Positions 1,008 to 59,623 of a stretch of DNA of 61,508 nucleotides are shown here, piece by piece. The position numbers were made by a program, and so were the translations under genes. This stretch comes from Chiloscyllium plagiosum. Lineage: Eukaryota. The stretch covers positions 12,439,448-12,500,955 of the forward strand of contig NC_057719.1 of the NCBI RefSeq assembly GCF_004010195.1. Reading direction: 5' to 3'. Within the stretch, counting starts at the first letter, position 1. Every line of letters starts with the position of its first letter. The notes below the pieces were generated by a model. It did no database searches. It worked only from the letters and a program-made list of their open reading frames with translations, and was not told the origin of the DNA.

Positions 1008-1258
1008 AAGATTGTTAAGTCTGAACAAACAATCCAGGTCTTTTTCAATATAACATTTCAGTTACATCACACTGTAAACTTTTGCTATAAATTCCGTGTC
1101 TTACAATCTCATACTCCACAACCACCTGATGAAAGAGAGGTGCGCCGAAAGCTAGTGCTTTCAAATAAAGCTGTTGGACTATAACCTGGTGTTGTGGGAT
1201 TTTTAACTTTGTACATCCTTTGTACACCCGAGTCCAACACCGGCACCTCCAAATCCTC
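1008..1258 (+). mobile_element. PLE-terminus-type short element, family D, with hammerhead-like motif
   Basis: cacCTGATGA...GAAAGCTAgtg at 1123-1157; same family at 30395, 57243 and 58660. Confidence 0.65.
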
Positions 1259-1324
1259 AGTAATCAAAAAAGTCTGTAGAAAAAGTGAAACACTGGGTGT
1301 CATAAAAAGTTATCTGGTTTAAGT

Positions 1325-1545
1325 AGGTAAAAACAATGACTGCAGATGCTGGAAACCAGAGTCTAGATTAGAGTGGTGCTGGAAAAGCACAGCAATTCAG
1401 GCAGCATCCAAGGAGCAGTAAAATCGACGTTTCGGGCAAAAGCCCTTCATCAGGAATTCCTGATGAAGGGCTTTTGCCCGAAACATCAACTTTACTGCTC
1501 CTCGGATGCTGCCTGAATTGCTGTGCTTTTCCAGCACCACTCCTA
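1325..1545. mobile_element. Palindromic PLE-terminus element, family A
   Basis: Inverted arms around GAATTC (1454-1459), two hammerhead motifs, flanking duplication TATCTGGTTTAAGT. Confidence 0.8.
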
Positions 1546-1750
1546 TCTGGTTTAAGTGTCCATTAGGGAAGGAAATCTGCTATCCTAATCTGATATGGCC
1601 TGTGTGACTCCAAACTCTCAGCAATATGATGAACTTATGGTTATCTTATAAAGTGGCTCAGCAGGCTGCTCAATTTTATTCAGGAAGGAAACTTACCAAC
1701 TATGAGAGTTACTAATGAGAGTTTCTGTTTAATTTCTAATTTTGATTTAC

Positions 1751-1878
1751 CTGACAGCTGAGTGCCTTTTCCTTGCAGCATCTGTTGTGTAGGTAGGAAG
1801 TGTATCAGAAGATAGTGAATGAATGCCACTGAAAGAATTGTTTTCATTCAAATGAGTCTTAACTTTCTGATGAGAATC
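1751..1878 (-). CDS. FAM161B: FAM161B exon
   Basis: aacag|GAT TCT...GTC AG|gtaaat; SFSGIHSLSSDTLPTYTTDAARKRHSAVR. Confidence 0.88.
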
Positions 1879-4800: not shown

Positions 4801-7800
4801 GGCCTCTTGCTGAGATATTTGGATCATCGATAGTCACAGGTGAGGTGCCGGAAGAATGGAAATTGGCTAACGTGGTGCCACTGTTTAAGGGCAGTAAAGA
4901 CAAGTCAGGAAAATATAGACCGGAGAGCCTGACCTCAGTGGTGGGCAAGTTGTTGGAGGGAATCCTGAGGGACAGGATGTACATGTATTTGGAAAGGCAA
5001 GGACTGATACAGGAAAGCCACACACACAGACCAAGTCCTAAACTACGAAAGCAACCACCCCAAAACACACACAAGAAGTTGCATCAAGACACTGTTCAAA
5101 GGGCCACAACACACTGCAGTACACCAGAACTGCAAAAAGAGGAAGAAGAACACCTATACAATGTATTTGCCAAAAATGGATACCCCCGCAATTTCATCAA
5201 CAGATGCCTAAGGGAAAGACAACGGAATGAGGACATGCCACAACCCAAAGGACTAGCCACACTACCATACATCAAAAACATTTCTGAACTGACAGCCAGA
5301 CTACTGCGACCACTAGGACTCAGAACAGCACACAAACCAACAGCCACACTCAGACAACAACTCACCAGGACGAAGGACCCGATACCCAACATGAGCAAAA
5401 CCAATGTAGTGTACAAATCCCATGCAAGGACTGCACAAAACACTACATAGGACAAACAGGAAGACAGCTAACAATCCGCATACATGAACACCAACTAGCC
5501 ATGAAACGACATGACCAGCTATCCGTAGTAGCCACACACTCAGATGACAAGCAACATGAGTTCGACTGGGACAACACTACTATTATAGGACAAGCCAAAC
5601 AGAGAACAGCCAGGGAATTCCTAGAGGCATGGCACTCATCCACAGATTCAATCAATAAGCACATTGACTGGACCGAATATACCGACCACTGCAGCGGACA
5701 GCTGGAATGGACAACCGGAAGCGGCAGGTACAAATCACTATAAATGCTGGAGGAAACATCATAGAAGCGCTTCACAGGAGGCTCCCAAACACTGAGAATG
5801 TCACCTAGAGAGGAGACGAAACGTTTGCAACACAAATTCCCAGCTCGGCGAACAGAACCACAACAAATAGACAAAGTCTTTTCCCTGGGATCAAGGAGTC
5901 CAGAACTAGAAGGCATCTTTTCCCTGGGATCAAGGAGTCCAGAACTAGAAGGCATAGGTTTAGGGTGAGAGGGGAAAGATATAAAAGAGACCTAAGGGGC
6001 AACTTTTTCACGCAGAGGGTGGTGCGTGTATGGAATGAGCTGCCAGAGGATGTGGTGGAGGCTGGTACAATTGCAACATTTAAGATGGGTATATGAATAG
6101 GAAGAGTTTGGAGGGATATGGGTCGGGTGCTGGCAGATGGGACTAGATTGGGTTGGGATATCTGGTTGGGGTGGACAAGTTGGACCCAAGGGTCTGTTTC
6201 CATGCTGTACACCTCTATGACTATGACATGCAATAGGCAGCATGTTAGTTTGTTCTCAGGATTTCTATGACAAATATCCTCTCTTGTACACTGGAAGAGT
6301 CAGGACCAGAAACAAAAACGCAATGAAGAGAAAATAAATAGATTTCCTATCCCCACTTCTGCCATTAACTGCTCTCAAGGCAGCATAGGCAGATGCCAGA
6401 GATCAGGTTACTATTCCATCTGGAGATGGGGAATTCTGTTTTAGTTCCTATGTGTAGCGTGGTCTGAATACTTCAGCACAATGCAATACATATTTACAAT
6501 GACTAGTCTATAATCAGTTACTCAGCTTACCTTTTAGCTTCACGCTTACTGTTGGATCTTTAACAGACAGTGGAATTTTCTTTATCGGTTTTGCCTTCTT
6601 CACCGTTTCTGGTATGACTTCACTGATCTGTAGTTTCAACTTCTCATTCTCTTTTTTCTCCTCCTCTTCCTTCTCAGTAAAACTGAATGGTTTCTGTGTG
6701 GACATCAGGAATTCTTTCCGCTTCTCTCGTCCTCTTCTTCTCCTTTCCTCATTCTGTTCATTCATTTCTTCATAAAGTTGAAGATAAACATGAGCTGGTA
6801 CAGGAAGAGCCCGGAATTTCTTCTGGCATTCTGTCACTTCCCAGTCCTGTGTTTCCAATTGCTCCTTCTCTATTTCCAGCAATAGTCTGGATCTGAGAAG
6901 CTGAATTTTCTTTTGACTTTCCCGCATCGTCATGTCAAATGGCTGAGGAACTGCAAAGAAATATTTAGTAAGAAAGTACATGCACAACGTGGTGCTACGC
7001 AGGTTCTTTACAAGATGTTAAAACATCCATAAATTTGATGCATTCAATTCCACTGTTCCTAATTACTTACAGCACAAATCAGCCATTTAGCCCAACTGAT
7101 CCATGAAAGTCACTTGGCTCCATAAGAGCTACAACCCACTTTTTCATTATCTCACTCTATTAACATATCCTTATTTTTCCTTCCCCCTCGTACTTGTCTA
7201 GGATTTCCTTAAAAGCAGTGATTTTACCTAGCTCAACCACTCACTGTGGTAGCAAATCCATATTCTAACCATTTTAAGTAAAGAAATTGTTCATAGGTGC
7301 CCTAAGCTTACACCACCATTCAATAATATTATGGTTAATTTTCTGTATCAACTCCACTTTTCTGCTAACTCCTCATATAGCAAGGTTCCCTCAGCAAACA
7401 AACGTTTGTCTATCTCAGCTCTGAATATATTCAGTAATGGAGGTTTGGGTCGAGAATTTGAAAGAAAAAGTGAAAAGATTTCTCCTCAGCCCATTTCTAA
7501 TTATCAACTTCTTATCCTGAGATCCATGTTCTATATTGTCCTGTCAAGGAATATGACCAGTTTACAATCTTTGCATATTTTTCTGGTTCCAAGATAAATA
7601 TTTTCTAAAGCAGAGTAGTTTTCCACTTTGGATATCAAATGCACTCAGATTAGTTATAATATGGGTCACATACAAAGTCATTTTTCTTCTTACCTGCCAC
7701 AACAACCAGCATACTCAGGAGAATGCCCTGTGAGCTAATGTGAATTATACATTTCATCATCTCAACCACCTTTATCTTCCTTTTTAAAAGGTTTGTGTAA

Positions 7801-10800: not shown

Positions 10801-13800
10801 TTGGGTAGTGTGAATGTCACTTGCCACCGGACAGCCCAAGCTTGGATACTAGCCAGATCTTACTGCATTTGAATATAGACTGCTTCAGTATTTCAGCAGT
10901 CACCAATAGGGCTGCATATTACAGAATCATCTGCAAACATCCCCATTTCTGACTTTATGATGGAGCAAAAGCAATTGATGGAACAGCTGAAGATGTATGG
11001 GCCTAGGACTTGACACTAAGGAACTCCTGCAGAAATGGCCTGAAGCTGAGATCACTGACCTCTAACAACCATGACCATCTTCCTATGTGCCAGGTGTGAC
11101 TCCAACCAGTGGAGAGTTTGCCCCAATATGCAATAATTCCAGTTTTGCTAGGGTTCCTTGATGCCATACTCAGTTGAATACAGCCTTGATGTCAAGGCAA
11201 AAGTGATGCACAGAAAACCTTCTTCACTAAGATTACAAAGGGGTTTTTCATCAAATAGGTTAATGGGCTGAAAAATGGCAGATGGAGTTCAATCTGGATA
11301 AATGAGAAGTATTGCATTTTGGCTTATATAATTAAATGTAGGGGGTAGTGTTGGAGAACAGAGGGATCTAGGGGTGCAGGTACATAATTATTTGAACTTT
11401 GCATCACATATAGACAAGATGGTTAAAAAGGCAATTGGCATGGTTGCCTTCATTGCTCAGACCTTTGAGTATAGGAGTTGTGAAGTCACATTGAGGTTGT
11501 ACAGGACGTTGGTGAGGCCTCTTCTGGAATACTGTGTCCAATTCTGGTCATCCAGTTATAGGAATGAATTAATCAAACTGAACAGGGTTCAGAAGAGATT
11601 CTCCAGGATGTTGCCAATATGAAAGGTTCAAGTTATAAAGAAAGGCTGGAATGGCTAAGACTTTCTTTACGGAGCATAGGAAGTTGAGAGGTGACACGAT
11701 AAAAGTTTCTAAAATAATGAGAGGCATAGATAGAGTTAATGGGATGGGAAATTTCAAGACTAGGGGTACATTTTCAAGATGAGAGGAGAGAGATCTATAG
11801 AAGACATAAGGCAAATCTTTACAAAGTGGTTTGCGGGTGGAATGGGGGAGGCAGTGGCCTAGTGCTATTATCACTGGACTGTTGTTAATCCAGAGACCCA
11901 GATAATGTTCTAGGGACCTGGGTTCAAATCTGCCACGGTGGATGGTGGAATTAGAATTCAATAAACATCTGGATTTAAGAATCTAATGATGACCATGAAT
12001 CCATAATTGATTGTCGGAAAAACCCATCTGGTTCACTAACATCCTTTAGGAAAGGAAACTGCCATCCTAAGCGTGTCAGGCCTACATGTGATGCCAGACC
12101 CACAGCAATGTGGTTGATTCTTAACGGCCTTCTGGTCAATTAGGGATAGGCAATAAATGCTGCTTGGTAAAAACAAAGACTGCAGATGCTGGAAACCAGA
12201 GTCTAGATTAGAGTGGTGCTGGAAAAGCACAGTAGGTCAGGCAGCATCCGAGGAGCAGGAAAATCAACGTTTCGGGCAAAAGCCCTTTATCAGGAATAGA
12301 GGCAGGGAGCCTGCAGGGTGGAGAGATAAATGAGAGGGGGGGGGGGGAGAAAGTAGCATAGANNNNNNNNNNNNNNNNNNNNNNNNNNNNNNNNNNNNNN
12401 NNNNNNNNNNNNNNNNNNNNNNNNNNNNNNNNNNNNNNNNNNNNNNNNNNNNNNNNNNNNNNNNNNNNNNNNNNNNNNNNNNNNNNNNNNNNNNNNNNNN
12501 NNNNNNNNNNNNNNNNNNNNNNNNNNNNNNNNNNNNNNNNNNNNNNNNNNNNNNNNNNNNNNNNNNNNNNNNNNNNNNNNNNNNNNNNNNNNNNNNNNNN
12601 NNNNNNNNNNNNNNNNNNNNNNNNNNNNNNNNNNNNNNNGAGCTGGAAGTTTTTGTTGCAAACCTTTCGTCCCCTGGCTGGGCGACATCATCAGTGCTTG
12701 GGAGCCTCCTGCGAAGCGCTTCTTTGATGTTTCCTCCGGTGTTTATAGTGGTCTGTCCCTGCCGCTTCTGGTTGTCAGTTTCAGCTGTCCGCTGTAGTGG
12801 TTGGTATATTGGGTCCAGGTCTATGTGTTTGTTGATGGAGTTTGTGGATGAATGCCATGCCTCTAGGAATTCCCTGGCTGTTCTTTGTCTGGCTTGCCCT
12901 ATGATAGTAATTTTGTCCCAGTCGAATTCATGTTGCTTGTTGTCTGCGTGTGTGGCTACTAAGGATAGCTGTTCGTGTCGTTTTGTGGCTAGTTGATGTT
13001 CATGTATGCGGATTGTTAGCTGTCTTCCTGTTTGTCCTATATAGTGTTTAGTGCAGTCCTTGCATGGTATTTTGTACACTACATTCGTCTTGCTCATGTT
13101 GGGTATCGGTTCCTTCGTTCTGGTGAGTTGTTGTCTGAGCGTGGCTGTTGAAACTGACAACCGGAAGCGGCAGGGACAGACCACTATAAACACCGGAGGA
13201 AACATCAAAGAAGCGCTTCGCAGGAGGCTCCCAAGCACTGATGATGTCGCCTAGCCAGGGGACGAAACGTTTGCAACAAAAACTTCCAGCTCGACGAACA
13301 GAACCACAACAACGATATCGGTGGATGTGCAGGTGAAACTTTGATGGATGTGGAAGACTCCTTTGGGGCCTAGGATGGAGGTAGTGAGGCCCTCATCCCA
13401 TGAATGAAGGAAGAAATTAACTTACGGAGGAAGTGGTGGATGCTGGTACAATTACAATGGTTAAAAGACATTTGGATAGATACATGTATAAGAAAGGTTT
13501 GGAGGAATATGGGCCAGGAGCAGGCAAGTGCGACTAGTTTAGTTTGGGATTATGTTTGCATGGACTGGTTGGACTGAAAGGTCTGTTTCCGTGCTGTATG
13601 ACTCTAAGACTGTCACTCTCACCTCAAACTTTATTTTCCACTATAAGAAAAGACTATATTTTTTGAAAAACTCAAGTTTGTGAGACATGATTTCCCAAGT
13701 TACAAAGCCAGGCTGAATACCCCTAAGCAGTCCTTGCCTTTCCAAATACATGTATATCCTGTCCCTCAGGATTCCCTCCAAAAAAAAAAAGACTATATTG

Positions 13801-16805: not shown

Positions 16806-17257
16806 TTAGTTTAGCTTTATTTGACCAGAGAGATCCAGTTATCAGAATTGCATTGTTGGAACTTGTCCTGCTCAGACATATCCTACTGAAAGATCATACA
16901 ACAATTATAATTTTATTGCAATCATTAAGAAGTAACGACATCAAAAATGTACCATGACTTGAACTTTCTAAGTAACAGTAGATTTTCTAAAGAGGTTCAT
17001 TTTCAGACACTAACTGACCTTTTTGTATGTTACTGGGAATTTCATACTTTTACTCTGGTAGGATTTAACGGAGTTCAAACTTTTGGCTTAACAATAAAAT
17101 GTATAATATTTGTAGTCTTTAGATTTGTAGTCATCAGTTACTTTGAGAGAGATCCTAAGCAAATTTAACAACTTAATCCAGATCTTCAATTTCCAAGACC
17201 TGTAATTAGTAGCATGTATCATTAGAAAGTACTTCTTTAAGCTCCAACTTTATCAGA

Positions 17258-18124: not shown

Positions 18125-18830
18125 ACCATCATAAAGTGGTTTCTCTCCAAATGTAGAGGAGACCATGTTGGGGAAACAAAGCCGTGGACTGGGTGATCAC
18201 TTTGCAGAACACCTACATTTTTAGCTACAAAAAAGACCGAGCTTCCAGTTTCCTGCTACTTCAACACACCACCTTGTTTCCTCGCCAATAGCAGCACCTC
18301 ACTTTCTGCTTGGGAACTCTACAGCCTTTTGAACTCAATATTGAGGTCAACAATTTGAGAGCTTAAAGCACCATTTCCCCTTACCCCAACCTCCCCCACC
18401 CCATCCACCCACATCAGGGTTTATTCTCACATGGTCTGCTGTTACACACAGCTGAACATGTGTTGCTGGAAAAGCGCAGCAGGTCAGGCAGCATCCAAGG
18501 AACAGGAGAATCGACGTTTCGGGCATAAGCCCTTCTTCAGGATTCCATTTCAGCTCTGATCTCCAGCATCTGCAGTCCTCACTTTCTCCTGCTGTTACAC
18601 ACAACCCATTGTTACGTACTAAAAGAGTAGTTCATTCTCCTAGGCTGATCGCTATCCACTCCTTTGTTTGTTCAATTGTTCTCTCTCTTCCTAGCTTCTG
18701 AGGAAGAATCACTGACCTGAAGCATTAACTTCAATTTTACTCCACAGATGCTGCCAGACCTGCTGGAGTTTTTCCAGCAATTTCTGTTTTTGTTTCTGAT
18801 TTCAAGTATCCACAGTTCTTTCAATTTTTA
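18125..18830 (+). mobile_element. Degenerate Neptune-like PLE 3' part with a family A insertion (18453-18590)
   Basis: GIY-YIG-like remnant (..GETK..LGDHFAEHL); family C terminus 18697-18830; insertion flanked by ctgctgttacacaca duplication. Confidence 0.6.
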
Positions 18831-19849: not shown

Positions 19850-19863
19850 GTTACCATGGTAAC
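19850..19863. promoter_or_regulatory. RFX X-box GTTACCATGGTAAC
   Basis: Perfect 14-bp palindromic RFX consensus next to the first exon of a cilia-related gene. Confidence 0.8.
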
Positions 19864-20200: not shown

Positions 20201-20561
20201 ACCAAACGCACCCAAGGGGTTCACAGGATCCGCCGCCCGTGCCGCTGATTCGTGCGAATGCGGCGCCTGGACGCGTGCCGATTGTGCGCTGCGTATGTCG
20301 ATCATCGCCCAGGGCCCGCCCTCCACCAATGGGTGCCGCAAGACGACCGTCGCTGTCTGTGATTGGTTCATCCCTTCCACATGCGCCCGCCCTCTCCCAT
20401 TCATGCATTGTTACAGTGCAGCCTCGGTACGCAGTAGCGAGAGAAACACACAGGGGTCACTGGACTCGAAATGCTAACTCCTGTGTTTTCTTCACAAATG
20501 CTGCAATTTCCTGTCCTTGTTTACTTCAAACATTTTTAAAGTCTGGCTACTGTTGTAAAAC

Positions 20562-20750
20562 AGGGGAAGGTGAGGACTGCAGATCAGAGTCGAAAAGTGT
20601 GGCGCTGGAAAAGCACTGCAGGTCAGCAGGCAACATCCAAGGAGCAGGAGAGTCGACGTTCCGGGGAAGGGCTTATGTCCAAAACATCGATTCTCGTCCT
20701 CCTGGGATGCTGCCTGACCTGTTGTACTTTCCAGCGCTACACTGTTCGAC
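20562..20750. mobile_element. Palindromic family A element
   Basis: Inverted arms; duplication ACTGTTGTAAAACAG at both ends. Confidence 0.75.
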
Positions 20751-21824
20751 TGTTGTAAAACAGTCAATTTGCACACAGCATAGCTACCCACAAATTTGTA
20801 ATTCCATCCCTCCAAATTCGAAGAGCGCCCTGACTTGGAAATACAGTAATTTGCCTGCATTTCAGAAACGTTTTGGGCTTTTCCGCTAAAAACCTGTAAC
20901 AGTTCTAACGTTTTCAAATTCTAATGAAAAGTCATTAACCTCAAATGTTACATTGGTTCTCTCTCGCAACAAATGTTGCTTGACCCGAAACATAGAAAAT
21001 ATGATATAAAAGGTGGTTATGTCAGTACCATCTGGGCCAACCTGCTAAGTATTTCCAAAATTTTCTATTTTTTTAATTACATACAGCATTCACAGCATTT
21101 TTCTTTTTGTGTACTAAGTGAATTAATAATTGGATAGAGAAGAGGGATAGTGCTCATGTAGATGGGTCCTTTTGTGTTGTTAATATTATTCAAATGGATT
21201 TAATAGCAGAACATTTAGAAATACTGATGTGATCAAGAAAACTCAGCATGGCTTTTCGAAGGGGAAATCGTGCTTGCCAGTGGATGTAATATACTTTCAT
21301 TTTCGGAGGCATTTGATAATGTACCACGTTAGGCGACCTATGATATTAAAGGTAGTATATTAGATTGAATAGTGGATTGGAGAAGAGAAAGAGGGTTAAG
21401 AGCGGCATTTTCGGCAAGGCAACCTGAAACTAGTGGAATACCACAGGGATCAGTACTGGGGGTCACAATTATTTAAAATATATATTAATGACTTGGATAA
21501 AGAAAGTGATTGTACTATAGCCAATTTTGTGGCCAGCACAAAGTAAGTGGGAAGGCAAATGATGAGGATATTTCAAAGGGTCTACAGAGGGACATAGACA
21601 GGCTAAATAAGTAGGTAAAGATTTAGTGGATGGAATATAATGTGGGAAAATGTGAGGTTATGCAATTTGACAGAAAGAATAGAGGAGTTGAATGTTTGTA
21701 AATTGAGAAAGCTACAATATAGAGGAAATTGGGAGTCCTTGTGCACAAATCAACAAAGCTAGTTTACGAGTTCTGCAGGTAATAAGGAAGGCAAATGGAA
21801 TACTGGCTTTTATTTCATACTATT

Positions 21825-26329: not shown

Positions 26330-26517
26330 TTAATAAAAACTGAAAGAACTGCAAATGCTGTAAAGCAGAGACAAAAACCTAAGTTGCTGGAAAAGCTCAA
26401 CAGGCCTGTGGGACCCATTCTATTGTAAGGTCACCGGACTCGAAACATTAACTTTGATTTCTCTGCACAGATGCTGCCAGACCTGCTGAGCTTTTCTTGC
26501 AACTTCTGTTTTTGTTG
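26330..26517. mobile_element. Inverted family C PLE-terminus element
   Basis: Inverted arms; duplication ttaaattattaat. Confidence 0.65.
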
Positions 26518-27125: not shown

Positions 27126-27171
27126 TGGAAGGTGACCGTTGGTCAGTTATGAAGTCCGTGCCTCACGTGCC

Positions 27172-27367
27172 ATGAGTCTGTGGAGAGGAGCGAGGTTGAC
27201 TGGCGGCCTCCGCCCCCAGGGACTGGCCTGGCTCCTGCGGGACGGTGGCTGCGGCAGGAGGGGATGTTCCTCCAAGCAAGAGGAGCAGGAGAGCGGCCCT
27301 CCCGAGTTCTACGATGTGGTTATCTCGGGCGGCGGGATGGTTGGCACCGCTATGGCCTGTGCTCTAG
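27172..27367 (+). CDS. COQ6: COQ6 exon 1
   Basis: gccATGAGT...[14 protein letters not shown]|gtaggc. Confidence 0.9.
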
Positions 27368-33300: not shown

Positions 33301-36300
33301 ATATCCTATTTATTATTGTACTATTGAATTTACCTTGCCTCTCCTCATAATTCTCTTCATTGAACGTTTTGCACTGATCTGTCCTCCTGAAAGTTATTCC
33401 TGACCATCTTGCTGTTTAGAGTGTTTCTACATATTTTAACCTCTGCAAACTTTGAAGTTATATCTGATATACATCAAAAAGAGCAGAGGCATTAATGATG
33501 ACCTTGCAATACCTCTGCATATTTGTTTGTAGTCTGCTTTTTAAAAAAAATTACCACTAATCTGCTTTCTGTTTGTAACCATGCTGCTAGCTGCCCATTT
33601 AATCTCATGGATTTTAATTTTGCTCTCAAGTCTATGAATTAAAATGCCTCCTTAACTTTTCTCACCGCTGACCAGTACCTGTGGGTTTAGCCTCTTCCTG
33701 GTTATAAAATACTAATATTTACAATTGGTCTGTCCTCTAATTCCACCCCAAAGTCCAACGAAAATCAGAAGACTTTCAGGAGAGTTTAACAATTTCCACC
33801 TGTGCTACTCTCCAATACATACTTGATTCTTAATCTGCTTCAGCCTTCTTCTGATAATATAATGTCTTTTACAAAGTCAAATGGTGCAAATGCTTTCAAA
33901 TTAAAGAAGTAGTTTTTCGAGTGAGGTCTCCAACTGCCCGGAGTGTAAATGTCATAGCAAGCCTGAACTATGTAACAAAGGAGTCTGGTTCAAAATGTAT
34001 CCTCTTAATTTTCTATTTCTATAATTAGTTGATTTACAGCACTGAAAGAAACAATTTTGTCTTTGGATCCATGGCAGGAACTGTTGTAAAAATGACATGA
34101 TTACTACTTTTAAAAGCAAATGGATTTGGAATTCAGAGGTTATTGGGAGGTAGACGGGGATGTGGAATTTGAAACAAACAGATCAGCCACAATCCTATAA
34201 AATGGTTTTTGCAGGCCTGAGGGGCTTAAAGTTCCACTTTTAACCATTTTGAATGTTCATACGAATGATCTTTAAGCAATGACTGTCTTGTATAATGATA
34301 TCAAATAATATTCAAATTAATATCTATTACAGTATTTTTATTTCTCTGCAGCTTATGATCCAAATCTAACGGAGAAAAAGATCCTGCTTTTGGAGGCTGG
34401 AAATAAGAAAGCAGATGGACAGCTACCAGAATTGTATAGTAACCGAGTGAGCGCACTTACTCCAGGCACTGCAGCATTCCTAAGCCGTAAGTCTCAGTGG
34501 GCCCTTATACTTTTCATTTCAGTTGGCGTTGTACTGCAGTTGTCATTTGTGGCGAGGTAGCATAGCTGCGCTAAAGTTAATCTTTGCTATTGGGCATTGT
34601 GTTTGGCTATTCTTGTGTTACTTGCCTTAAGTGGCTGTAGGATGTACTTCAATATTCTCTCTTGCCAACCTGCTTCTATGGTAGTGCTTCCTCAACTAAT
34701 TTCCAGAATCCATTTTAACTGTTGAAAATTAACTCTACCCCAAACAAAACCCAGTAGAAATAAAACAGCCTAGTTCACTGTATAATTATTAAAGTTCACG
34801 AATTATAGATCAACCTTTAATCATATATGAAAATGTGCTATGAATTAAAAACCTGCTATAAAAATCTCAGGCTGTTAGAGGATGGGCTGCTATCAGTCAT
34901 CACATCCTTATTGTCTGCTATTATCACTGCTCTAGGAAGTCTTTGTATTTAAATACGTATTTATATAGTTGTGTCATAGCACACTTGCTTAGAGCCACTA
35001 CAGCCAATCAAAATGTCCAACCTCAGGAGTTTGTCTTATGGTTGGTTAATTCCCACTGATGGGGCAATACGAGGTCAGTGATTAATGTGATATTTTTATT
35101 CGTTGTGATGCATTTTATTGTTTCTGTCACACCAACTTAGATTGTGACTTGTGGTTTTGGAACCATTCCTCGATACAAAGAGTAAAATGCTCTTTCAGTT
35201 TCTATTTGTGATCGTTGAGGGAAAGGGACAAAGATGCTAAAGGACCATCAGTGCTTGTGCAGTGTGTGCGTGCACAAAAACAAAATACCAAAAAGGGACC
35301 TCTTCCATTATTTCAGCTTTATGTTTGCATCATTTTCCTTCCTAGGTTTGGGAGTTTGGGATCATATATGCAACATGAGATACAAGCCATTCAAGAGAAT
35401 GCAGGTAAAGCTTCAGTGGCATTTTTTATCAATTCATTTTCTCAATTTAGTTTTGTTCAGTTTCCAATACTGATCGAGAGTTTGGCCATTGAGGTGCAGA
35501 CTTACAAAGGGCATAGGCTCATGGTTTAACCTCTGGCCTGTGAGAAGTGTTGGTGAGTTATCACACAGTCTAGCTTGTTGATGGCACACTTTGCTGCCCC
35601 AGTGTGCATATGGCAATGGGATTGCCAGTCAAGTGAGCTGCTTTGTTTTGGACAGTGTTGTGCTTCTTCCGTGTTTTTGCAGCTGCTTTCATCCAAACAA
35701 CTGGAAAGTATTCCATCATCATCCTGACTTGAGCCTTATGGCATTCAGGAGGAAAGTACTTATTGCATAATTCCTGCCCATGAAGCCATGGTAATCCTCC
35801 TGGTGTTGGTGTTAGGCAATGTCAGTGCCTGTGAAGAGACCGGGAATTTTAGTCATGTGAGTGTGGTGTTGGAAAAGCACAGCAGTCAGGCAGCATCCGA
35901 GGAGCGGGAAAATCGACAGTTCAGGCAAAAGCCATTCATCACCACATTCTCTCGACTCTAACCTCCAGCATCTGCAGTTCTCACTTTTGCCTGGAGAATT
36001 TTAGGCTAATACTGGCAGTATTGCAATTACTCTGGCTTCCTCATGATACTTTGATTAGGTATCACTGGTTAAAGAACCCTCTATGGACTTTCTGGCTAGA
36101 GTTCGAGGGAAGTACTATCTTTGAAGCAGCAATGACCTCCTATCCATCGTTAGGTTCAAAATGTAGATGATTGCCACTGATTGGTCTGTACTGATTGCAA
36201 CTCTTCTGAGACTGAAACTGTTTATGCTCACATGCAACTAGATTTAGACAAGATTCAGTCTTGGCTGATAAGTGGCTGGAAACATTCATACCACAGAAAT

Positions 36301-45300: not shown

Positions 45301-48300
45301 TTTTTCACAGTTGTAAGTCAACATCTAAATTATTTATGTAAGCATTGAAACCTTATAGGTAAGTAGCTGTTTTTGAACACGTAATTGGAAGTTCTGGCTA
45401 ATAGGTGACACTATGAAGTAATTTCTGAAGACTGCCTGTTTTGCTGTTCACTTAACAATTAAACAGCGCAGGACGATGAGCAATTCATCAGCAATTATTT
45501 ATACTTGGACCATTCAGAGTAAGGTGATAGGATGGGTGAAGGCATTGAATTGTTTAATCAGCAGTGATTATATTGAACGACTAGGTCTTTTGTGAGGCTC
45601 AATGGACTGAAAGACGTACTCGTGTTCCTAAGTTCTGATATATATTACTTAAAAGTCAATATTTACTGTAAAGACTCTGAAATGAGAATCTGAAAGCAAA
45701 ATTTCTCTTTCAAGACCGGTTAGAAAATTGAGGGAAAAGAAATTGAAACTTCTGTTGCTGTGAATTTTTAAAAAAACACATTCAAGTGATCAGATTTAAT
45801 GTATTAAGTGGATTTCTGTGAGGCTATGCTTTGCAAACCCATTCCCTACTGCTTTACAGCGGAGGTATGCTTATTTTTTCTGAATTGCCTGGAGTTCTGC
45901 CAGATGTGAATATTCTTCTGCTATGAAAGCAAGCTGGAGACTTGATTGAAACAATTAAATTTTTTTCATTTTCTATGCTTGCTCATTTACTCATGCTGCT
46001 ATGTTTCTACTAGACTGGCAGCCTCCAGCACTTGTGTCCTGACAGTAGGGTCCATGCGTGATGGGCTGCTTGCCCAAGGGGGAGTTAGTGAGCGTTATTG
46101 CTAAACTGGATCTGCCTTTCCTGGAACATTCTTTGACGTTAGTCATCAATACCTTGTATGGCTTTCATTTGGCTCTGCTACATCACTGTAACAAAATCAG
46201 CAATTTACTATGCAGAAAACTGTTCAGTTTTATTGTAGTTCACCAGGGTGGTGCTCATAAACTTGGGTGTTGGATAGCTGGTTTGTGATGCAAAGTGTTG
46301 CCAAAAGCATGGGTTCAGTTCCTGTATTAGTTGAAGTCACCATGTAAACTCTACCTCCTTGACCCCTCTCACATCTGAGGCTTGATGACCCTCAGGTTAA
46401 ACTCAGCATCAGTTGTCTCTTTAATGAAAGAGCAGCCCTATTGTCCTCTGAGACTATGGCGACTTTACTTCTATTATTGAGTAAATATTTAAAACAAACA
46501 CTCAATTTGTACTAATTGCAATATGATAATATTTTGATTTGTCATAAAATGGTGCTAAAGTTCTGATCTCTGCAAAACGTAAATGTTTATTGATATTTTG
46601 ACTTTCTTTTTTGTAGTGGAGCAATGAGAATCACTCAGAATTTATTGACACTGCAAGCTCCATGTTAAAGACAGCTTTAATGTTCCTGATGCCATCTGGC
46701 ACATCGGTACGTCAGCTGCCACCAAGCGTGGCTCACATTGACCCAAAAAGCAGGGCTATGTTTCCACTTGGATTGGGTCATGCCACGAAGTATGTTAGAC
46801 CACGTGTTGCTCTCATTGGGTAAGATCAATTCCCTATCCCTACCTCCTACATTGTGACCCATCTGAGATCGAAAGTCTGGGAAGCCAACTTGTGTGCTAG
46901 TATTATCATTGGGAGGTGTCCCTTTGAATGCAGCAGGCAACTATTTGATCCTTGTACTGTGGCCCTTTTGACAGGACAGTAGAAACCTGAAGCTGGCTTT
47001 TGGAGAATTCTTGTATCTTACTGTTCACAGCAAGGCAGGTTGAATGCTGCAGATGTCTGCTCCATCCATGATTGTGTTCTCATGTGACCTTGCAAACACA
47101 CTTAGCTTCCCTAGGTTCTGGAATTTTCTCCTTCAGCCTCTTTCCTTTTAAAGAGCTCCTCAAGAAATCTCCTTAAATGACTCAGTGTGTTTGATAATGC
47201 TCTTGTCAAGTGTCTTAGGATATCTTACTATATAAACAGTATAACTTAAATGTAAAACAAAGAACTGCAGTTGCTGGAGATCTTAAACAAACAAAACACA
47301 CAGGTATTGCTGAGAAACCCAGCAGATCTGGCCACATCTGTGGAGTGAAAACAGAGTTAATAATTTGAGTTCAGTGACCCTCCTTCAGAAGTTCTGAGGA
47401 ACATTAACTCTATTTTCACAATTTAAATGTAAATTGCTATTGGTCAGTGCAAATTTAAACACATGCTATTGTTAGTGGAGCAAATTAATGGGCTGAATGG
47501 CCTATTTCTGCTCCTACATTTTATGGTCTAAAAACCACGTCTCAAAATCAAATTTTCGCAAAATTCAAGAGTTTCTTTTTAAATTCACTCGTAGTATGTG
47601 AACGTTGCTGGCGAGCCAGCATTTATTGCTGTCTTTGTTATTATTGCTGTGAGCTACAAATCTTCTCAAAACTCACTAAAATTTATTACTGTCCTTGAGA
47701 AGGTGGTGGTGAGCTGTCACCTTAAACTGCTGCAGTTCCTGTGCTGTCGGTTGATCCACAGTGCCCTTAGGGAGAAAATTCCAGAATTTTGACCCAACTT
47801 CAAGTTTTACTGAGGGTTTGAGAATGCCCCGTTTGAAAGGTTGATGGAACTTCAGCAGTAACCTTCCATAGAAAATTGTATCTCTGTTTAACTTGAGAAG
47901 CCATAGAAAAGAATGGGAGTAATTGGTAGTTCTGCTGAGCACAGATGCAATGGATCAAATAGTCATTTTTGCTATACCATTCCAAGTTTTATTTGAGCCG
48001 CAAGTGCCAAAATTGTCATTGGAGAAACTAATTAAATAATTAATATAATGCTATGATGCAAGGAGCAATATTAGTGTATATAAGGCTGATTAAATGGGTC
48101 TTGGGTTTACAAAGCACTCATAGAATGTGTCTCAACACTTACACAATCAATTAAATTAATTTTGAAAGATGAAAATGTCATTGGATTTCAGATCTTTTCA
48201 TGACCTCAGGCCATGCCGATATGCATTGAAGCCAGTGAATTTTTTAAAAACTATGGGCATTACTGTAATATAGGAAACAGAACAGCCAATTTGATAACAG

Positions 48301-51300
48301 CAAGCTTCCTCAAACAACCATATGCTGTGGACAAAGATTTAATGAAAGGATATTGTTTGGGATAAAAAGTGTCATTGGGTTCACTTGAGAATGAAGATGA
48401 AAATCTATTTCATGTCTCATCAGAAAGATAATACTTCCTGCATTACGTCATTCCGTCACTGTTGTGCTGGAATATTAGCTGAGACTTTTATGCTCATATT
48501 TGGATTAAGACATGAACCCACAAGTCTCTCAGGCCAGAGAGGTACAAGTGAACCATGGCTGATGATTTTGAAGTTGTTAGAAAACACACTGCTTTCTGAA
48601 AATAAGAAACTGCACCATCATCAGGCCTACTCAGATGAATAAACAGTTAATCTGTTTTCGCTATTACAGGTTGAGAACTGTACAGAGATATTCTAATGTT
48701 AGTTCAGCTCCTTTTGTGGGCTTCAATAATTTTGATTAGTTAGCTTTTATAATATCATTATCTGTTGGGAGAATAAAAACCCTTTTCAATATGCAAAGTG
48801 ACAAATCCAACAACGTTGTCCTGCTAAATAAACATGCACTTTTTGCATAATTTAAATAGTGTGCGGAAAGGTCTGAGTATTATATTTTGATTTTCCTTTC
48901 TCGATTGGAAATGATGAAAGTAAAATCTGGTTGTCTTGATATGACTGGATCCTCCTCCTAGTGACTTGGTAGGGAAAATTGTTTCATTGCTTAATAAGTA
49001 TTCTCTTAATTTGTAATTTCCTTCCTTTTATAGGGATGCTGCACACAGAGTTCACCCATTAGCAGGGCAGGGAGTCAACCTGGGTTTTGGGGATGTTGTT
49101 AGTCTCTCTCAACATCTCAGCGAGGCAGCCTACAATGGCAAAGACCTAGGTAGGAGAATCTTTGTCTCTGGCTAGTTTAACTGTAAATGGGGTCATTTTT
49201 GGTGATGAAGGCTGGTTTTTTTAAAAAAAAACACTAGGTTCTCTTTCTAAGAATTCTCACTTTAATGCACTCTGTGTAGACTTTGCAAGTTTTCATCCTG
49301 GATATCCCATTTGGGTTCTCATTCCTATAATTTACATGACTACTTCCTTTTCTGACCCACTCATCTGCCAAGTGAAGCTGATTGTGAGCAGGTAACCTCC
49401 TGAGGTCGGAGGTACATGTGTGTGATTGGTATGTCTTCACTCTGCTCCCAAAACCTGGCTGATTGGCTGAGGAAAGCATTATAGCTTTGTCTCAGTGTTC
49501 CTCAAGGCATTTATGACCAAATACAGCATTCTGGTGAACCAGTATTTAAAAGCTAGAAATAATTGACCTCGGGCTACCATAATTGTACACCTCCAGAGTC
49601 AAGATAATCTTGTGCCTGATGTTCCTCCCTATTAACATTGCCCACTGCCAGTGGATAGTTGTCAGAAATGCTGGCTTTTTCTTTATAAATCTCCCACATC
49701 CTAGCCATGGATGCTGATGCCATTTTCAGTATTCAAACTGATACCAGCTCAGTACAGATCAAAAATTGAACCTCGCCTTTGATAACAGCATGAATATTGG
49801 TAGTGTTTTAATCTATCTCAGCAGTTCAGAATTGCAGCAGTTCAGAATTGAACAGGAAGTGGACTCTATTGTGTCTGCATCAACTGTCTGAGCATTTTAA
49901 CCTGGTGCCAATGTCCTATCCTTTCCTGTTTTTTTTCTGTCGGAAGGATGTTGTGAAACTTTAAAAGCATTCAGAAAAGATTTCAGGATGTTGCCAGAGT
50001 TGGAGGATTTGAGCTATGGGGAGAGGCTGAATTGGCTGGGGCTGTTTTCCCTGGAGCGTCGGAGGCTGAGGGGTGACCTTACAGAGGTTTATAAAATCAT
50101 GAGGGGCATGGATCAGATAGCTGGAAATTTTTGTTGCAAATGTTTCGTCCCCTGTCTAGGTGACATCCTCAGTGCTTGGGAGCCTCCTGTGAAGTGCTTC
50201 TGTGGTGTTTCCTCCGGCATTTATAGTGGCCTGTCCCTGCCGCTTCGGGTTGTCAGTTTCAGCTGTCCGCTGTAGTGGCCGGTACATTGGGTCCAGGTCG
50301 ATGTGTTTGTGGATGAGTGCCATGCTTCTAGGAATTCCCTGGCTGTTCTTTGTTTGGCTTGCCATATCATGGTAGTGTTGTCCCAGTTGAATTCATGTTG
50401 CTTGTCGTCTGCGAGGATGTCACCTAGACAGGGGACAAAACTTTTGCAACAAAAATTTCCAGCTCGGCAAACAGAACCACAACAACGAGCACCCGAGCTA
50501 CAAATCTTCACCCAAACTATGGATCGGATGAATAGACAAAGTCTTTTCCCTGGGGTGGGGGAGTCAAGAACTGGAGACCATAGGTTTAGGGTGAGAGGGG
50601 AAAGATATAAAAGGCACCTAAGGAGCAACATTTTCACGCAGAAGGTGGTGCATGTATGGAATGAGCTGCCAGAGGAAGTGGTGGAGGCTGGTACAATTAC
50701 AACATTTTAAAAGGTATCTGGATGGGAATATGAACTGGAAGGGATTAGAGGGATATGGGCCAAGTGCTGGCAGGTGGGACTAGATTGGGTTAAAATATCT
50801 GGTTGGCATGGATGACTTGGACCGAAGGGTCTATTTTCGTGCAGTACTTCTCTAATACTCTAAATAATCAGCCACTGCTCTTTGAATGCCTCAGTTGAAT
50901 GAGTAATTCATCAAACTGCTTTTTTAAGCAGTTATAAAGAATAAAACAACTCCTTATAGGCTGAATTTTCAGCTATATCATGGGGGGGCGTTTTATTCTT
51001 TGATGGAATGAGGGTATCACTGGCTAGGCCAGCACTTATTGCCCACCCCTAATTGTCCAGAGGGTAATTAGATATAATCTGCTATATTGTCCTCAGACTT
51101 TTACTTATAATGCTTTACAACTTATTTATCTAAGCACCATTTAACTAATGGAATTGAGTTGACTGCTCTGCATTTTAACCACTGCCATCATCAACCATTG
51201 TTTCCTCTTGTTTATCTAGGGTCTACCAACCACCTCAATGCATTTGAAACAGAGCGTCAGAGACATAATCTCCCTGTCATGGCTACAATAGACCTGCTGA

Positions 51301-52563: not shown

Positions 52564-52569
52564 AATAAA
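52564..52569 (+). terminator. Candidate COQ6 polyadenylation signal
   Basis: AATAAA followed by a GT-rich tract (tgttttgtgatttgt). Confidence 0.5.
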
Positions 52570-52807
52570 AGTAATACTCATGTTTTGTGATTTGTAAACT
52601 TTCTAATTTTGATGTAGATACATTGTGAACTGGTATTGCAAGTGGTGTCTTCAGAATTGAGGGATCTTTTGAAGTGAATGGTCGCAAAATAGCAGGATTT
52701 CTAAGTCAAGTTTGCAAATTAAGCAAATCTTTCAGATGTTTCCTGGGTGAACTCTGGTAGTCATGTGCTATTTGGCTCAGACCATCAGTGAACTTGGGTA
52801 TAGATTG

Positions 52808-52937
52808 ATTCCTGAAGAAGGGCTAATGCCCGAAACGTCGATTCTCCTGTTCCCTAGATGCTGCCTGACCTGCTGCGCTTCTCCAGCAACACATTTCCAT
52901 CTCTGACTCCAGCATCTGCAGACCTCATTTTCTCTTT
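52808..52937 (+). mobile_element. Solo family A element with an intact hammerhead motif (52811-52841)
   Basis: c-CUGAAGA-a-GGGC uaau GCCC-GAAAC-GUC-g; duplication tatagattga. Confidence 0.78.
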
Positions 52938-55900: not shown

Positions 55901-56645
55901 TTTATTTGCTCATACAACCAACGCTGGTTCTAATAAGAAGATTTAATGTTCTCGTGCTCCTAAGTGAATAAAAAACATTCCCACCAGCTTTGAAAGCAAG
56001 CTTCTTCTAAGATAACCCTATATCTGGAACTAAATTTGGAGTGAGATTTAATTTGAGTAATTTTTAAAAATCTAGGCATGCTATCACTAACAGTAATCAG
56101 GACATGTTTAAAAATATCTACTGTCATTGAAGGTTTTGAGCTGATTTACATCAACATCTTATAGACTTTTGTTACAGTGGGAGCAAGCACTAACCAAATT
56201 AAATTGTTAATACTGAAAAGTATTTAAGTATATCAGAGTTTCTCTGCAAGTCCAGTAGAAAGATCATTTCATGATTACTGCCCGATGTGATGTTTTGGTA
56301 TTGAGCATTTCCACATTCTTATGGCAATTCCATCGAAGGTATATTTTTGAAAGTCTTGATGTTGATTTTATTTTTCTGCTTAATTTATCAAAGAGGAGTC
56401 AAAAATATAGCAATATAGCATAGCTTCCTCCCCATCCCTAATTAACTAACCACCTCATGAAACAATGAGAGACTCTCTCGAAGGGAGCACATCTCTGACT
56501 TGTTTTCAGTGAATGGAGACCAGTTTGGAGTTGAAGTTATTTTTTCTATATGCAGATAGAAATCAGTGCTCAGACTTTAAAACAGTAGCAATCATGTGAC
56601 TCACTGCCCCATAAATAAAGTGTCTCATTAGATTTGCTTTACAAT

Positions 56646-56732
56646 TCACGCAGTGCTCCTCAGTGACTGGATGAGGTGGAATGCTGCTCCTAGTGCCCAG
56701 CTAGTTTCAATATTATTGACTTTCTTGGCCAG
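56646..56732 (-). CDS. ENTPD5: ENTPD5 terminal exon
   Basis: [28 protein letters not shown]. Confidence 0.93.
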
Positions 56733-59623
56733 CTGTGAAAATAATAAATGCAAGAATGATAAATGCTATAATACAGTAAACATCAATCTTCAGCAAGCCC
56801 AGAAAAGACTGGGACAGAATTGAGAGGGAAGTCACAACAACAAACATAAGATTTTACTTCTAGGATGGTAGTCTTCCAATAGTTGGACTTCCTACTCGAC
56901 CACCGAATGTCAGCAGAAACCTCAGCCCCATCCTCTCCTAATCCAACATCACCCGACCCCCTTGTCTGATCCTAATAGATACCTTGCAAACATTTAACAT
57001 GCCTAATCTCTGTTTGTATTCCCAGCTACACCATGGAGCAATGTGCACTACTGAAACTACAAGATCCACAGAACAAAGTGTCAATAGCACTTGAGATCAA
57101 TTACAAACTAAAATTATTTATTTCGTTGGATGCAATGCCAAGATGGTTTTAAAACTTTAAAAGCAGAATTTTATGTCCTCCAAGTTCTGAAGCAAGTTTG
57201 CAGATGGAAACCATAAATTTCTACTTTTAAGTTTTAAACCAATGATTTGGAGGAGCTGGTGTTGGACTGGGGTGTACAAAGTTAAAAATCACAACACCAG
57301 GTTATAATCCAACAGGTTTAATTGGAAGCACACTAGATTTCGGAGCGCCACTCCGAAATCTAGTGTGCTTCCAATTAAACCTGTTGGACTATAACCTGAT
57401 GTTGTGTGAGTTTTAACTTTGTAAAACCATTTGAGGCATTCTAAGAAAAAATAATTTTAGTTTGTAATTGGTGTCAAGTCCATAAATATTCTTGATTAAT
57501 AAGGATATCAAAGGTTACATAGAAAAGGCAAGAGAATGGGGTTGAGAAACAGCAGCCATGATCAAATGGCAAAGCAGGCTTGATGGGCCAAATTGCCTAG
57601 TTCTGTTCCTATATCTAATGGTCTTTAAAAAGTTTTACACTGTTATAAGTTGTACTGAATTAGCGATGACTTGGAATAAACAGAAGATAACTTTGACAGA
57701 GATTTTAGTTTATTCTTTGGGGTTACCTGACTAATCTACAAGATAACTTTGTTAATCATCTGTATTTTTAATAGCCTAGACTAACTTTATAAACTTGATA
57801 ATGAAAGGAAACATTTCTTACAGTCTGTCTATAGCACATTAGAAAGTGAAGCTGAATAAGCATCATGTTTACCTGTAGTTCTGTGTTATCATAGAATCCA
57901 AACCCTTCCTTGAGTAAGGCAGTGATGTATGTTAGATCCATGCATAGAAAGGGACTACCTTTGGTTGCTTTATTGAAGTTTTCACACACTGAAGAATTCA
58001 AAGTTCATAATTAAGCAGCAGGAAAACAGGAGTGATTTGGTTTCACTTTGATCTATTAGGAGATTGTATGACCACATGACAACTAGCAATTACTTTCCTG
58101 TCCTTTCTCTTTTTATAAATGTTTTTACTCCTTTAAAAAGGGCACTAGATTCATGGAAAATTATACATAGAAATTACAACATAGAAATAACATTTTATCC
58201 AACGGGTCCATGCTCCATATAAGCTTCCTCATACTCTGTTTTATTCTAACCCTTTCTCTCTCATGTACTCATCTAGCTTTCTCTAACAATACATTAATGC
58301 AATTCTTTACCAACTCGATGCAATAAGAAGAGCCAGGAAGTTTCTGCTGAGTTTGCTAATGTAGATCTTATTTCTGAGTTCCAAAGAAAGTCATACTGCA
58401 CTAGAAACGTTAACTATTTCTCTCTCTACATATGCTGCCAGACTTGCTGAGTTTCTCCAGATTTTCTATTTTTCTTGTTTTTACCTTTTCTGGTTCCAGA
58501 CTCTGTAACAAGTGAAACATCTTACCAAGTCTACCCTATTAAACCTTACCAAAATTTTAAAGATCCCTTAGCCTTTTCTTTTTCAGACAAAATTAAACTC
58601 AGTCAGTTCAGTCTATTCTGATATGTACAATGTCCTTGTTCATCTGTGTGCATCTCTCCACTTCACCTGAGGAAGGAGCAGTGCTCCAAAAACTTGTGTT
58701 GGACTACAATTTGATGCAGTGTGACTTTTGACTTCATCTGTGTAAATCATCTTTTGAACACTTCTGTAGTCCTTCCATGCCCTCCTTATAATTATGGATA
58801 CTCTGTGCTTTTCTATTGTATAATCATTTGAATAGATTTCAGTTTCTTGAACAATACCTTGATAGGTTTCAGCATTTGTGATATGATTATTATTGCCAAG
58901 ATTGGCAATTATGCCTCATTGCCTGGTTTTCCACAAGAAGACAGTATTGTACTGTACTCTTGACCTACTGCAGTGTGTGCAAAGAAGGCATTTCCACAAT
59001 ATTATCAGTTGGTCCATTTTGATAACACTTTACTTAACTTAGGAAGGCAATAGGCCCTCACTAAAGCAAAGAGTTCACCCTGAAAATTACTACTTTGTAC
59101 AAATTTTCCTCTCTAGTCCTTAAAATCTTGCTTTGGAAATTAGTTTTCGTCTGCCTTGGAATAGAATCATGTCTTTCCACTCAAAATAATATAGAAAATT
59201 CTGTTTTCCTTGCTGGTGAGAGGTTAGTTTGTTCTTATTACCAGTTCTATTTAGTTAGGGTAAGGATACAAACCTTTTGCAGAATTACTTCTAAGTACAG
59301 AATATTTCTATTTAAAAAGATTGTTAAAAAAATACCTTCTATTGCTTTTGTTTCAAAATCCTTCACACGTATAACGCCACCCTCCTCAACATCTAAAACA
59401 AATTAGAAATAAAGCTTTTGAAAACTTATTTTGATACGTGTAGAAAAATGAGATCAAAAACATAATGTAGCTGTTCACATACCAATAATTCCTGCATCTA
59501 CAGCTCGATCGTAGTAATATGAAAATGCGTAGAATGTCCTCCTTTTGATTTCATCTTGCTGATCAAGTTTCTTTTGTATCAGCTTGATAATTTCAGTGTA
59601 GCAGGATTGGAAGCCAGAAGGAA
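56646..59623 (-). CDS. ENTPD5: ENTPD5 (ectonucleoside triphosphate diphosphohydrolase 5), last 4 coding exons; continues past right edge
   Basis: Exons 59483-59623, 59336-59392, 57873-57988 and 56646-56732 are in phase: [47 protein letters not shown] (apyrase conserved region 5); tail-to-tail with COQ6 as in human. Confidence 0.93.
57243..57425. mobile_element. Palindromic family D element
   Basis: Inverted arms meeting at cggagcgccactccg. Confidence 0.75.
57873..57988 (-). CDS. ENTPD5: ENTPD5 exon
   Basis: [38 protein letters not shown]. Confidence 0.93.
59336..59392 (-). CDS. ENTPD5: ENTPD5 exon
   Basis: [18 protein letters not shown]. Confidence 0.9.
59483..59623 (-). CDS. ENTPD5: ENTPD5 exon
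   Basis: GFQSCYTE...[18 protein letters not shown]|gtatgt. Confidence 0.93.

Follow-up and report, generated by a model that had tools for sequence, protein, structure and literature searches.

Penelope-like element ends carrying minimal hammerhead motifs in a 61-kb stretch of the genome of the shark Chiloscyllium plagiosum

Hammerhead-bearing ends and the state of their motif

The window examined here, a stretch of 61,508 nucleotides of Chiloscyllium plagiosum (assembly GCF_004010195.1, contig NC_057719.1, positions 12,439,448 to 12,500,955 of the forward strand), is vertebrate DNA with fragments of LINEs (long interspersed nuclear elements) as well as, on its minus strand, FAM161 exons (Pfam PF10595); it also holds many ends of Penelope-like elements (PLEs) that bear minimal hammerhead ribozyme motifs. 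Self-BLAST and profile searches gave 27 insertion loci with 40 arms, 13 of the loci being head-to-head pairs (Table 1). The arms fall into five end families: A with 12 loci (18 arms), B with 3 (5), B2 with 1 (2), C with 7 (9, one of the loci, 20921..20986, being a weak assignment at E 0.0014) and D with 4 (6). At 27 loci in 60,542 called bases, or about one per 2.2 kb, the dense multi-family population that a preliminary description of this DNA had put at about one per 3 kb is borne out; PLE-derived DNA, with boundaries as drawn in this analysis, makes up 8,868 of the 60,542 called bases.

The motif itself is real, but decayed in most copies. More than 20 insertions had been credited with the whole motif, and the loci are indeed there, but both hammerhead boxes are kept in only 12 of the 40 arms, the palindromic tetramer also in 8 of those, and unbroken core-closing stems as well (our strict descriptor) in 6. 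The strict descriptor found no motif in 200 dinucleotide shuffles (mean 0, maximum 0, versus 6), and a loose one found 9 versus a shuffled mean of 0.015. The core boxes, the extra base 9.1, the G10.1 pair and the palindromic 15-16 tetramer are present in A, B, B2 and D, and the earlier reading of the motif as a minimal hammerhead holds. In most copies stem I has just 2-3 contiguous pairs. A and D have C-G at pair 2.1-1.1 where B and B2 have A-U, pair 2.2-1.2 is U-A, C-G or A-U across families, and the palindrome is ACGU in A, B and B2 and AGCU in D (a C-G to G-C swap), so that the stems do vary between families and still pair, as had been proposed; these changes were judged pair by pair with a script and not by a formal covariation statistic, since the MAFFT alignment of the families is not structural and has D shifted by one column.

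Among the individual motifs named beforehand, those at 1426, 18513, 27540 and 52811 (A), 13235 (B) and 28889 (B2) were found again. The D motifs at 1123 and 30488 are present with mismatches in stem II, and the A copy at 1460 is a true locus whose palindrome and stem I are broken. The two C motifs fared worse, 26430 being without CUGANGA and 47360 without GAAA; no C copy has an intact core, so the window shows the hammerhead of this family only in decayed copies. Rfam (E up to 1) gave no hammerhead match in the window, its sole match being mir-2007 (E 0.16), which is the hairpin of an inverted pair. Folding z-scores of single arms, at +0.6 to -2.0, are not significant. In A at 52845-52925 (+) and D at 30400-30475 (-), again with non-significant z-scores, the 3′ extension that we call the tail (see below) makes up the 3′ strand of a long stem predicted by folding, and in both families the tail-less end falls close to the start of that stem.

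The minimal hammerheads of metazoan PLEs (Cervera and De la Pena 2014, PMC4209133) share the same core boxes, extra base between 9 and 10.1, G10.1 pair and palindromic 15-16 tetramer, and likewise come as several sequence families per genome, mostly as single motifs tied to truncated PLEs, of which a vertebrate genome holds thousands, and as opposite-strand pairs 100-700 bp apart. Stem I is shorter here (2-3 contiguous pairs versus 4-5), and the loci are far denser (27 in 60 kb, whereas about 4,000 motifs were given for coelacanth and 9,000 for Xenopus); sharks are not among the species named in the text of that paper that we examined. Our literature searches, outside of which most subscription papers lay, returned no account of these shark families; the supplements of bioRxiv 2026.07.22.740005, where species and families are listed, may include some of them. 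A 22-base family A pattern had no match in viral or metagenome contigs. The density and the families are a fresh, dense example of an already described PLE pattern, and no new kind of element.

Table 1. Arms, pairs and related features of the five end families in the window (position 1 is its first letter; C3 and N17, hammerhead positions; TSD stands for target-site duplication, RT for reverse transcriptase, ORF for open reading frame and UTR for untranslated region).
Positions	Strand	Feature	Remarks
1008..1255	+	D single arm, ~110 nt upstream, full tail; C3 1126, N17 1154; stem II mismatched	left edge approximate (reads from ~1024); no TSD found
1164..1184 (tract to 1205)	+	D poly(A) signal AATAAA 1164-1169, addition after 1184, GU-rich tract	410 X21 reads
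1326..1543	.	A head-to-head pair, both arms starting at one base; tail and intact motif on minus arm (C3 1453, N17 1426), broken motif without tail on plus arm (C3 1460)	TSD 14 bp
5008..5866	+	B 5′-truncated PLE, RT C-terminus and GIY-YIG remnant; box 1 mutated; inside LINE fragment	87-92% to P0002
9268..9341	-	A single arm starting at GAAA, tail-less	TSD 12 bp, 1 mismatch (weak)
12166..12362	-	A arm with tail, upstream at least 65 nt into gap; box 1 mutated	
12640..13315	.	B pair; minus arm with GIY-YIG ORF end into gap; plus arm intact (C3 13238, N17 13271)	
13316..13400	-	Short Neptune-like ORF remnant just before GIY-YIG	10/21 identical to P0016
14101..14192	+	A single arm with tail, its start 3′ of hammerhead	TSD 9 bp
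18150..18830	+	C long copy split by A pair: GIY-YIG C-terminal remnant, then 3′ UTR, hammerhead at 18698 (decayed) and tail	
18451..18589	.	A pair; minus arm intact (C3 18540, N17 18513), tail-less; plus arm tail only	TSD 15 bp
20454..20504	+	C fragment without box 1	
20564..20748	.	A pair, decayed, junction inside stem II	TSD 15-17 bp
20921..20986	+	C fragment, very decayed	weak assignment, E 0.0014
26335..26517	.	C pair; plus arm without box 1 and tail; minus arm with tail	TSD 13 bp
27470..27586	-	A single arm without tail; intact core (C3 27574, N17 27540) with expanded U loop	TSD 17 bp, 1 mismatch
27590..32122	+	C long copy: Neptune-like RT to GIY-YIG ORF, 3′ UTR, decayed hammerhead end 32019-32122	tblastn P0015/P0016: 28407-28835, 30287-30409, 30562-30789, 31538-31789; left edge read from translations
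		Interruptions of C long copy 27590..32122: A arm, repeat ~28040-28346, B2 pair, D pair, LINE piece 30785-31500	
27662..27799	-	A single arm; tail and both boxes present, change at U16.1	TSD 14 bp
28849..30286	.	B2 pair across gap, GIY-YIG ORF ends on both arms; minus arm intact (C3 28925, N17 28892)	TSD 12-15 bp around whole pair
30391..30551	.	D pair; on minus arm, tail and both boxes, stem II with one mismatch (C3 30519); plus arm short, without tail	TSD 11 bp
32177..32336	.	A pair, both arms cut inside hammerhead	TSD 13 bp
32933..33150	.	A pair; minus arm with tail, mutated GAAA; plus arm without box 1 and tail	TSD 15 bp, 1 mismatch
35853..35993	.	Decayed A pair; only tail in plus arm	TSD 9-11 bp
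47257..47419	.	C pair; minus arm mutated core and tail; plus arm 20 nt	TSD 12-14 bp
50119..50518	.	B pair inside LINE fragment; minus arm GIY-YIG end, both boxes, palindrome broken; plus arm starts inside box 1, with tail	TSD 11 bp, 1 mismatch
52808..52936	+	A single arm, core intact (C3 52812, N17 52839), with tail	TSD 10 bp
57242..57421	.	D pair, arms share stem II as turn	TSD 8 bp, 1 mismatch (weak)
58381..58499	+	C single arm, decayed core	
58650..58732	+	D single arm without tail; mutated GAAA, deletion of poly(A)-signal segment	TSD 11 bp

Reading frames that lead into the hammerhead ends

The arms of B and B2 read as GIY-YIG C-termini, in an ORF that runs directly into the hammerhead. 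Their matches to Pfam PF01541 (E 0.006 and 0.026) lie below the cut-off; the protein ends are 70% identical to a Stegostoma protein and 86-92% identical to an RT-bearing protein of Chiloscyllium, and it is proteins of these two genera that are the closest named matches to the window's PLEs. At 400-860 bp, and protein-coding, B and B2 copies are not the short elements that they had been taken for, and 6 of their 7 arms extend at least 90 nt past the hammerhead. In family B stem II begins with an ATG, which precedes the cut site by 28 nt; in PAc, the Poseidon element of Anolis carolinensis (Frangieh et al. 2024, PMC11167929), the corresponding ATG lies 26 nt before it. PAc and B/B2 are further alike in their AC-rich tail, in a C-terminal GIY-YIG without a linker zinc finger, and in having two 3′ ends and a template RNA that was, likely in B/B2, uncut (PMC11167929); the CX2-5CxxC linker before GIY-YIG is absent from P0001-P0014, the B-type relatives. 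Judged from their sequence, B and B2 are the 3′ ends of truncated, RT/GIY-YIG-coding PLEs of a Poseidon-like kind, a clade name which, as with Neptune-like below, stands for shared motifs and identity and not for a place in a tree with named references.

Family C reads as the end of a second, distant kind of PLE, which is Neptune-like. In its long copy a decayed ORF (~27590-31790), with four ordered tblastn matches to the RT/GIY-YIG proteins P0015 and P0016, leads via a 3′ UTR to the hammerhead at 32019, and in a second copy (18150-18830) ORF matches at 18146-18360 lead into the hammerhead end. A homologue search with C's decayed GIY-YIG piece gave no match, whereas the RT piece did match. P0016 is 49% identical to C's RT and only 22-29% identical to B-type proteins, and it carries the CX2-5CxxC linker between RT and endonuclease (EN), a stretch that in C itself is missing at a LINE insertion; this zinc-finger linker is described for Neptune, and Nematis also has one. 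The decayed element at 27590-32122 holds later A, B2 and D insertions, another repeat and a LINE piece, a nesting which gives a relative age order with C oldest. A further Neptune-like RT remnant, with a large internal deletion, lies at 61284-61508 (+) and runs off the window.

A and C align over the whole 130 nt at a mean column identity of 65%. One A copy (12166..12362) extends at least 65 nt upstream, as C-rich sequence, into an assembly gap, and past that gap lies a short Neptune-like ORF remnant (13316-13400, minus strand) with 10 of 21 residues identical to P0016 (E 0.16 in a window-wide tblastn); this remnant is possibly the upstream part of the A copy at 12297, linked to it across the gap. 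In B, B2 and C the ORF upstream of the end repeat runs from RT to a C-terminal GIY-YIG, which on the sequences at hand places these three families among the EN-bearing PLEs (EN+ PLEs); A is likely, and D probably, a member of the same group, family D having no ORF in the window. The Penelope origin first suggested for these ends therefore holds, whereas a non-autonomous, retrozyme-like or SINE-like reading (SINE, short interspersed nuclear element) does not fit B, B2 or C, whose ORF remnants run straight into their hammerhead ends.

Anatomy of the insertions and state of the template

All 12 pairs with both ends readable are asymmetric, one arm running further 3′ than the other; this offset, or tail, is 27-56 nt in ten pairs and 69 and 90 nt in the other two, and was measured against another copy for two pairs. 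It is the stretch between the two internal start sites of PAc. Target-site duplications (TSDs) of 9-17 bp were found at 17 of 25 loci versus 9 of 600 mismatched flank pairs (TSD score at least 9; 2 loci that end in a gap do not enter the count), and in 11 of the 12 readable pairs the TSD encloses the whole pair, so that a pair represents a single event. None of the insertions has a poly(A) end, and the window has no complete copy, full-length or partial-tandem, of the form pLTR-ORF-pLTR (pLTR, pseudo-long terminal repeat). An inverted, 5′-truncated copy with a 30-40 bp tail and a TSD is the signature described for EN+ PLEs (PMC3846280, PMC8557442), and the inverted copy, one-sided tail and TSD seen here are that signature. 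The complex insertions in those papers share the head-to-head pairs, the tail at one end, palindromic junctions and a TSD that encloses the full unit; most units here, unlike theirs, measure only 70-220 bp, and the TSDs are 9-17 bp versus 8-10 bp in rotifer PLEs.

At tail-less ends, homology between target and template is a weak lead from a small sample: 33 of 78 bases match versus a bias-corrected null of 23 (301/20,000), or 26 of 66 versus 20 (1,422/20,000) without the two weakest TSDs, with 2 of 15 arms dropped for poor anchors. By family, the first TSD bases at the tail-less ends of A, C and D match the element's continuation at 31 of 66 positions versus 20, and those of B/B2 at 2 of 12.

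Not one of the 18 A arms starts at position 33, where the self-cleaved 3′ product would begin, and 15 of 18 keep sequence 5′ of the scissile bond. This argues for an uncut template, and the copied RNA was likely not cut by the hammerhead. PAc behaves alike in vitro, uncut RNA being inserted and forming the main substrate, while cleavage needs protein (PMC11167929); minimal hammerheads showed no monomer activity and low dimer activity in vitro (PMC4209133). Since the motifs of a pair lie on opposite strands, and the five pairs that were folded give long hairpins (-75 to -173 kcal/mol), pairs cannot form dimers. The closest same-strand arms with two boxes are 214 and 334 nt apart, each with one broken partner, and the closest intact same-strand pair with ACGU is 1,351 nt apart; dimer cleavage in dispersed copies is thus unlikely. 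Neither cleavage site had a listed pile-up of RNA ends in X21, a poly(A) single-cell library which is ill-suited to show cleavage ends or 5′ ends, and this speaks neither for nor against cleavage. We suggest that in dispersed copies the hammerhead is mostly a decaying passenger, which would act, if at all, in tandem parent transcripts or with help from protein.

Three pairs (1326-1543, 32933-33150 and 57242-57421) would form hairpins of 70-90 bp in pre-mRNA, and such inverted-pair hairpins are possible sources of small RNAs or substrates for editing.

Possible routes of insertion and the family D poly(A) site

Family D carries a poly(A) site behind its hammerhead. In run X21, 410 reads, on the hammerhead-sense strand, have an A-run as loose end behind 1184 (agreement 0.82), which sets a poly(A) addition site 15 nt after AATAAA (1164-1169), before a GU-rich tract and 30 nt 3′ of the D scissile bond. 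This evidence comes from one sample, and its reads come from copies of the family and are not tied to the copy at 1008. Among minus-mate reads, 278 of 872 have T at 1165 (ATTAAA) and the AATAAA variant is also read, so that more than one D locus must be read; other variants suggest that one D locus gives a large share of the poly(A) reads. The window's D copies have no A-run at the addition site, and the copy at 58650 has lost the signal segment by deletion. As the poly(A) site lies upstream of both DNA 3′ ends, the RNA that is copied would have to read through it. Upstream of the hammerhead at 1126, some 80-100 nt are high-copy in DNA contigs and RNA reads, depth over 1040-1120 standing far above the unique flank in DNA and RNA runs (the summed depth does not translate into a copy number), and shared sequence goes on further upstream in 235 reads. 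The literature that we searched held no account of pLTR polyadenylation. D copies could shape the ends of shark transcripts if they provide host genes with poly(A) sites.

At the other end, A arms pile up at the front of the hammerhead core: 7 of the 8 that reach it stop within positions 0-3, and these 7 span two A subfamilies. Of the remaining arms, 7 stop at positions 6-26 and 3 further 3′. Loose ends beyond A's first base agree at only 0.32-0.43 in three runs (two of them contig runs, which contig collapse biases), so that most A copies would stop at that base, with upstream flanks unlike one another. YYANWYY is the initiator consensus of RNA polymerase II, and is matched at 1,492 of 121,084 positions (1.2%); in the one longer A copy, the pile-up base is the +1 of such a match, and one of the two long C copies (C32021) has a match at -5. 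In Drosophila Penelope an internal, TATA-less promoter has been described in the pLTR. A sharp 5′ end at the hammerhead front, with a poly(A) site behind it, is not described for PAc in the accessible text, and that study did not cover the Neptune-like A and C (PMC11167929).

We consider it probable that the loci are 5′-truncated insertions of the hammerhead-bearing pLTR of several PLE families, likely made by the elements' own enzyme and likely from uncut RNA. Reasoning from PAc (PMC11167929), the element's protein would nick both target strands 9-17 nt apart and start reverse transcription from two points inside the end repeat, some 95 and 130 nt in, after which the resulting cDNAs would be joined head to head. 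The many A copies of 95-130 bp could be run-off products of copying the 5′ pLTR of a transcript whose first base is 4 nt ahead of the hammerhead core, in which case no separate non-autonomous master would be needed for A; whether these short copies arose by run-off or at a stalling or joining hotspot we regard as evenly balanced. In its full form, which we offer tentatively and think doubtful as a whole, this proposal would hold that in Neptune-type shark PLEs the hammerhead opens the transcript, stem I overlapping the initiator; that 95- and 130-nt run-off cDNAs, like retroviral strong-stop DNA, integrate en masse without cleavage or a master; and that the D end repeat works as a poly(A) site too, each sense copy giving host genes a transcript end that can be carried about. 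Several points weigh against our account of the loci. A single A copy has the initiator match, as does one long C copy out of two, with D matching at other offsets and B/B2 not at all; the arms that stop at 6-26 or further 3′ are unexplained by run-off; no place where many molecules begin was listed, in a library not built for 5′ ends; and the two-nick, two-start mechanism comes from a single Poseidon element in vitro (PMC11167929). Likewise, no RT or EN remnant is joined to A or D without a gap, and A's ORF link crosses an N gap on a match of 21 residues.

The same PLE ends could have acquired their 5′ pile-up in another way, if reverse transcriptase stalled in or after a folded or protein-bound hammerhead, or if short AT-rich homology directed joining to the last ATT before the C-rich UTR; this we regard as possible, at somewhat short of an even chance. 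It would accommodate the 14 of 18 A arms whose ends fall at positions up to 26, with half of the 14 spread over 6-26, the use of palindromic or stem II overlaps at the junctions of the 1326 and 57242 pairs, the preference of PAc for ATT (PMC11167929), and the AT content of the TSDs (68% versus 59% for the window). It accounts less well for 7 arms from two subfamilies ending within 3 nt of one base that is also an initiator +1, or for B and B2, which also bear a hammerhead, and yet mostly run well past it. A (and perhaps C and D) might instead be short, SINE-like, non-autonomous masters of about 130 nt that start at the hammerhead and borrow PLE enzymes, as pLTR sequence can suffice for mobilisation in trans (PMC3846280), as A's 5′ ends pile up at one base, as nothing lies upstream of the hammerhead in 17 of 18 A arms, and as the loose ends there agree so little. 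We think this unlikely, given that one A copy does extend into a C-rich upstream tract, which the X21 loose-end consensus resembles by eye, and that C, the homologue of A, is the end of an ORF-bearing element. PAc, moreover, needs template beyond the tail, namely the first 172 nt of its ORF (PMC11167929), which a 130-nt master would lack, and Rfam (E up to 1) finds in the window no head of the polymerase III type, whether derived from tRNA, 5S or 7SL, so that in this window the ends do not fit the definition of SINEs.

Insertion by a retrozyme route, in which tandem transcripts self-cleave as dimers and the resulting unit-length linear or circular RNA is reverse transcribed and inserted, seems to us very improbable. 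Such a model has been proposed (PMC4209133), stem III is palindromic in 8 arms, and one chondrichthyan genome did have tandem retrozymes (bioRxiv 2026.07.22.740005); non-LTR retrozymes also share with our families a type I hammerhead, kinship to pLTRs and dispersed monomers (Cervera and De la Pena 2020, PMC7229834; bioRxiv 10.64898/2026.07.22.740005). They are, however, head-to-tail tandem repeats processed to circles, with canonical motifs where ours are minimal, and the window has no head-to-tail hammerhead units (0 of its 6 tandem arrays hold a hammerhead), so that a retrozyme identity was rejected. No A arm starts at a cleavage product or is circularly permuted, and 8 of 9 frog dimers that were tested did not cleave (bioRxiv 2026.07.22.740005). 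No circular-RNA back-joint was seen among the 15 listed of 449 joints, and none with X21 reads, in this poly(A) library.

The 12 readable two-armed insertions in 61 kb, from two PLE clades, fit the in vitro two-start model, and form a dense natural data set for the unsolved insertion cycle of PLEs. Were the run-off origin true, it would account for most PLE copies in such genomes being stubs headed by a hammerhead.

Turning to the surroundings, exons of FAM161A/B lie at 3844-4308 and 6514-7014 on the minus strand. A plus-strand exon at 27166-27363, without a Pfam match, resembles the first exon of COQ6, so that many of the elements likely lie in introns of two genes arranged head to head. A perfect 39-bp tandem duplication (5877-5955) in the LINE fragment follows closely on the B copy at 5008..5866, at its 3′ end.

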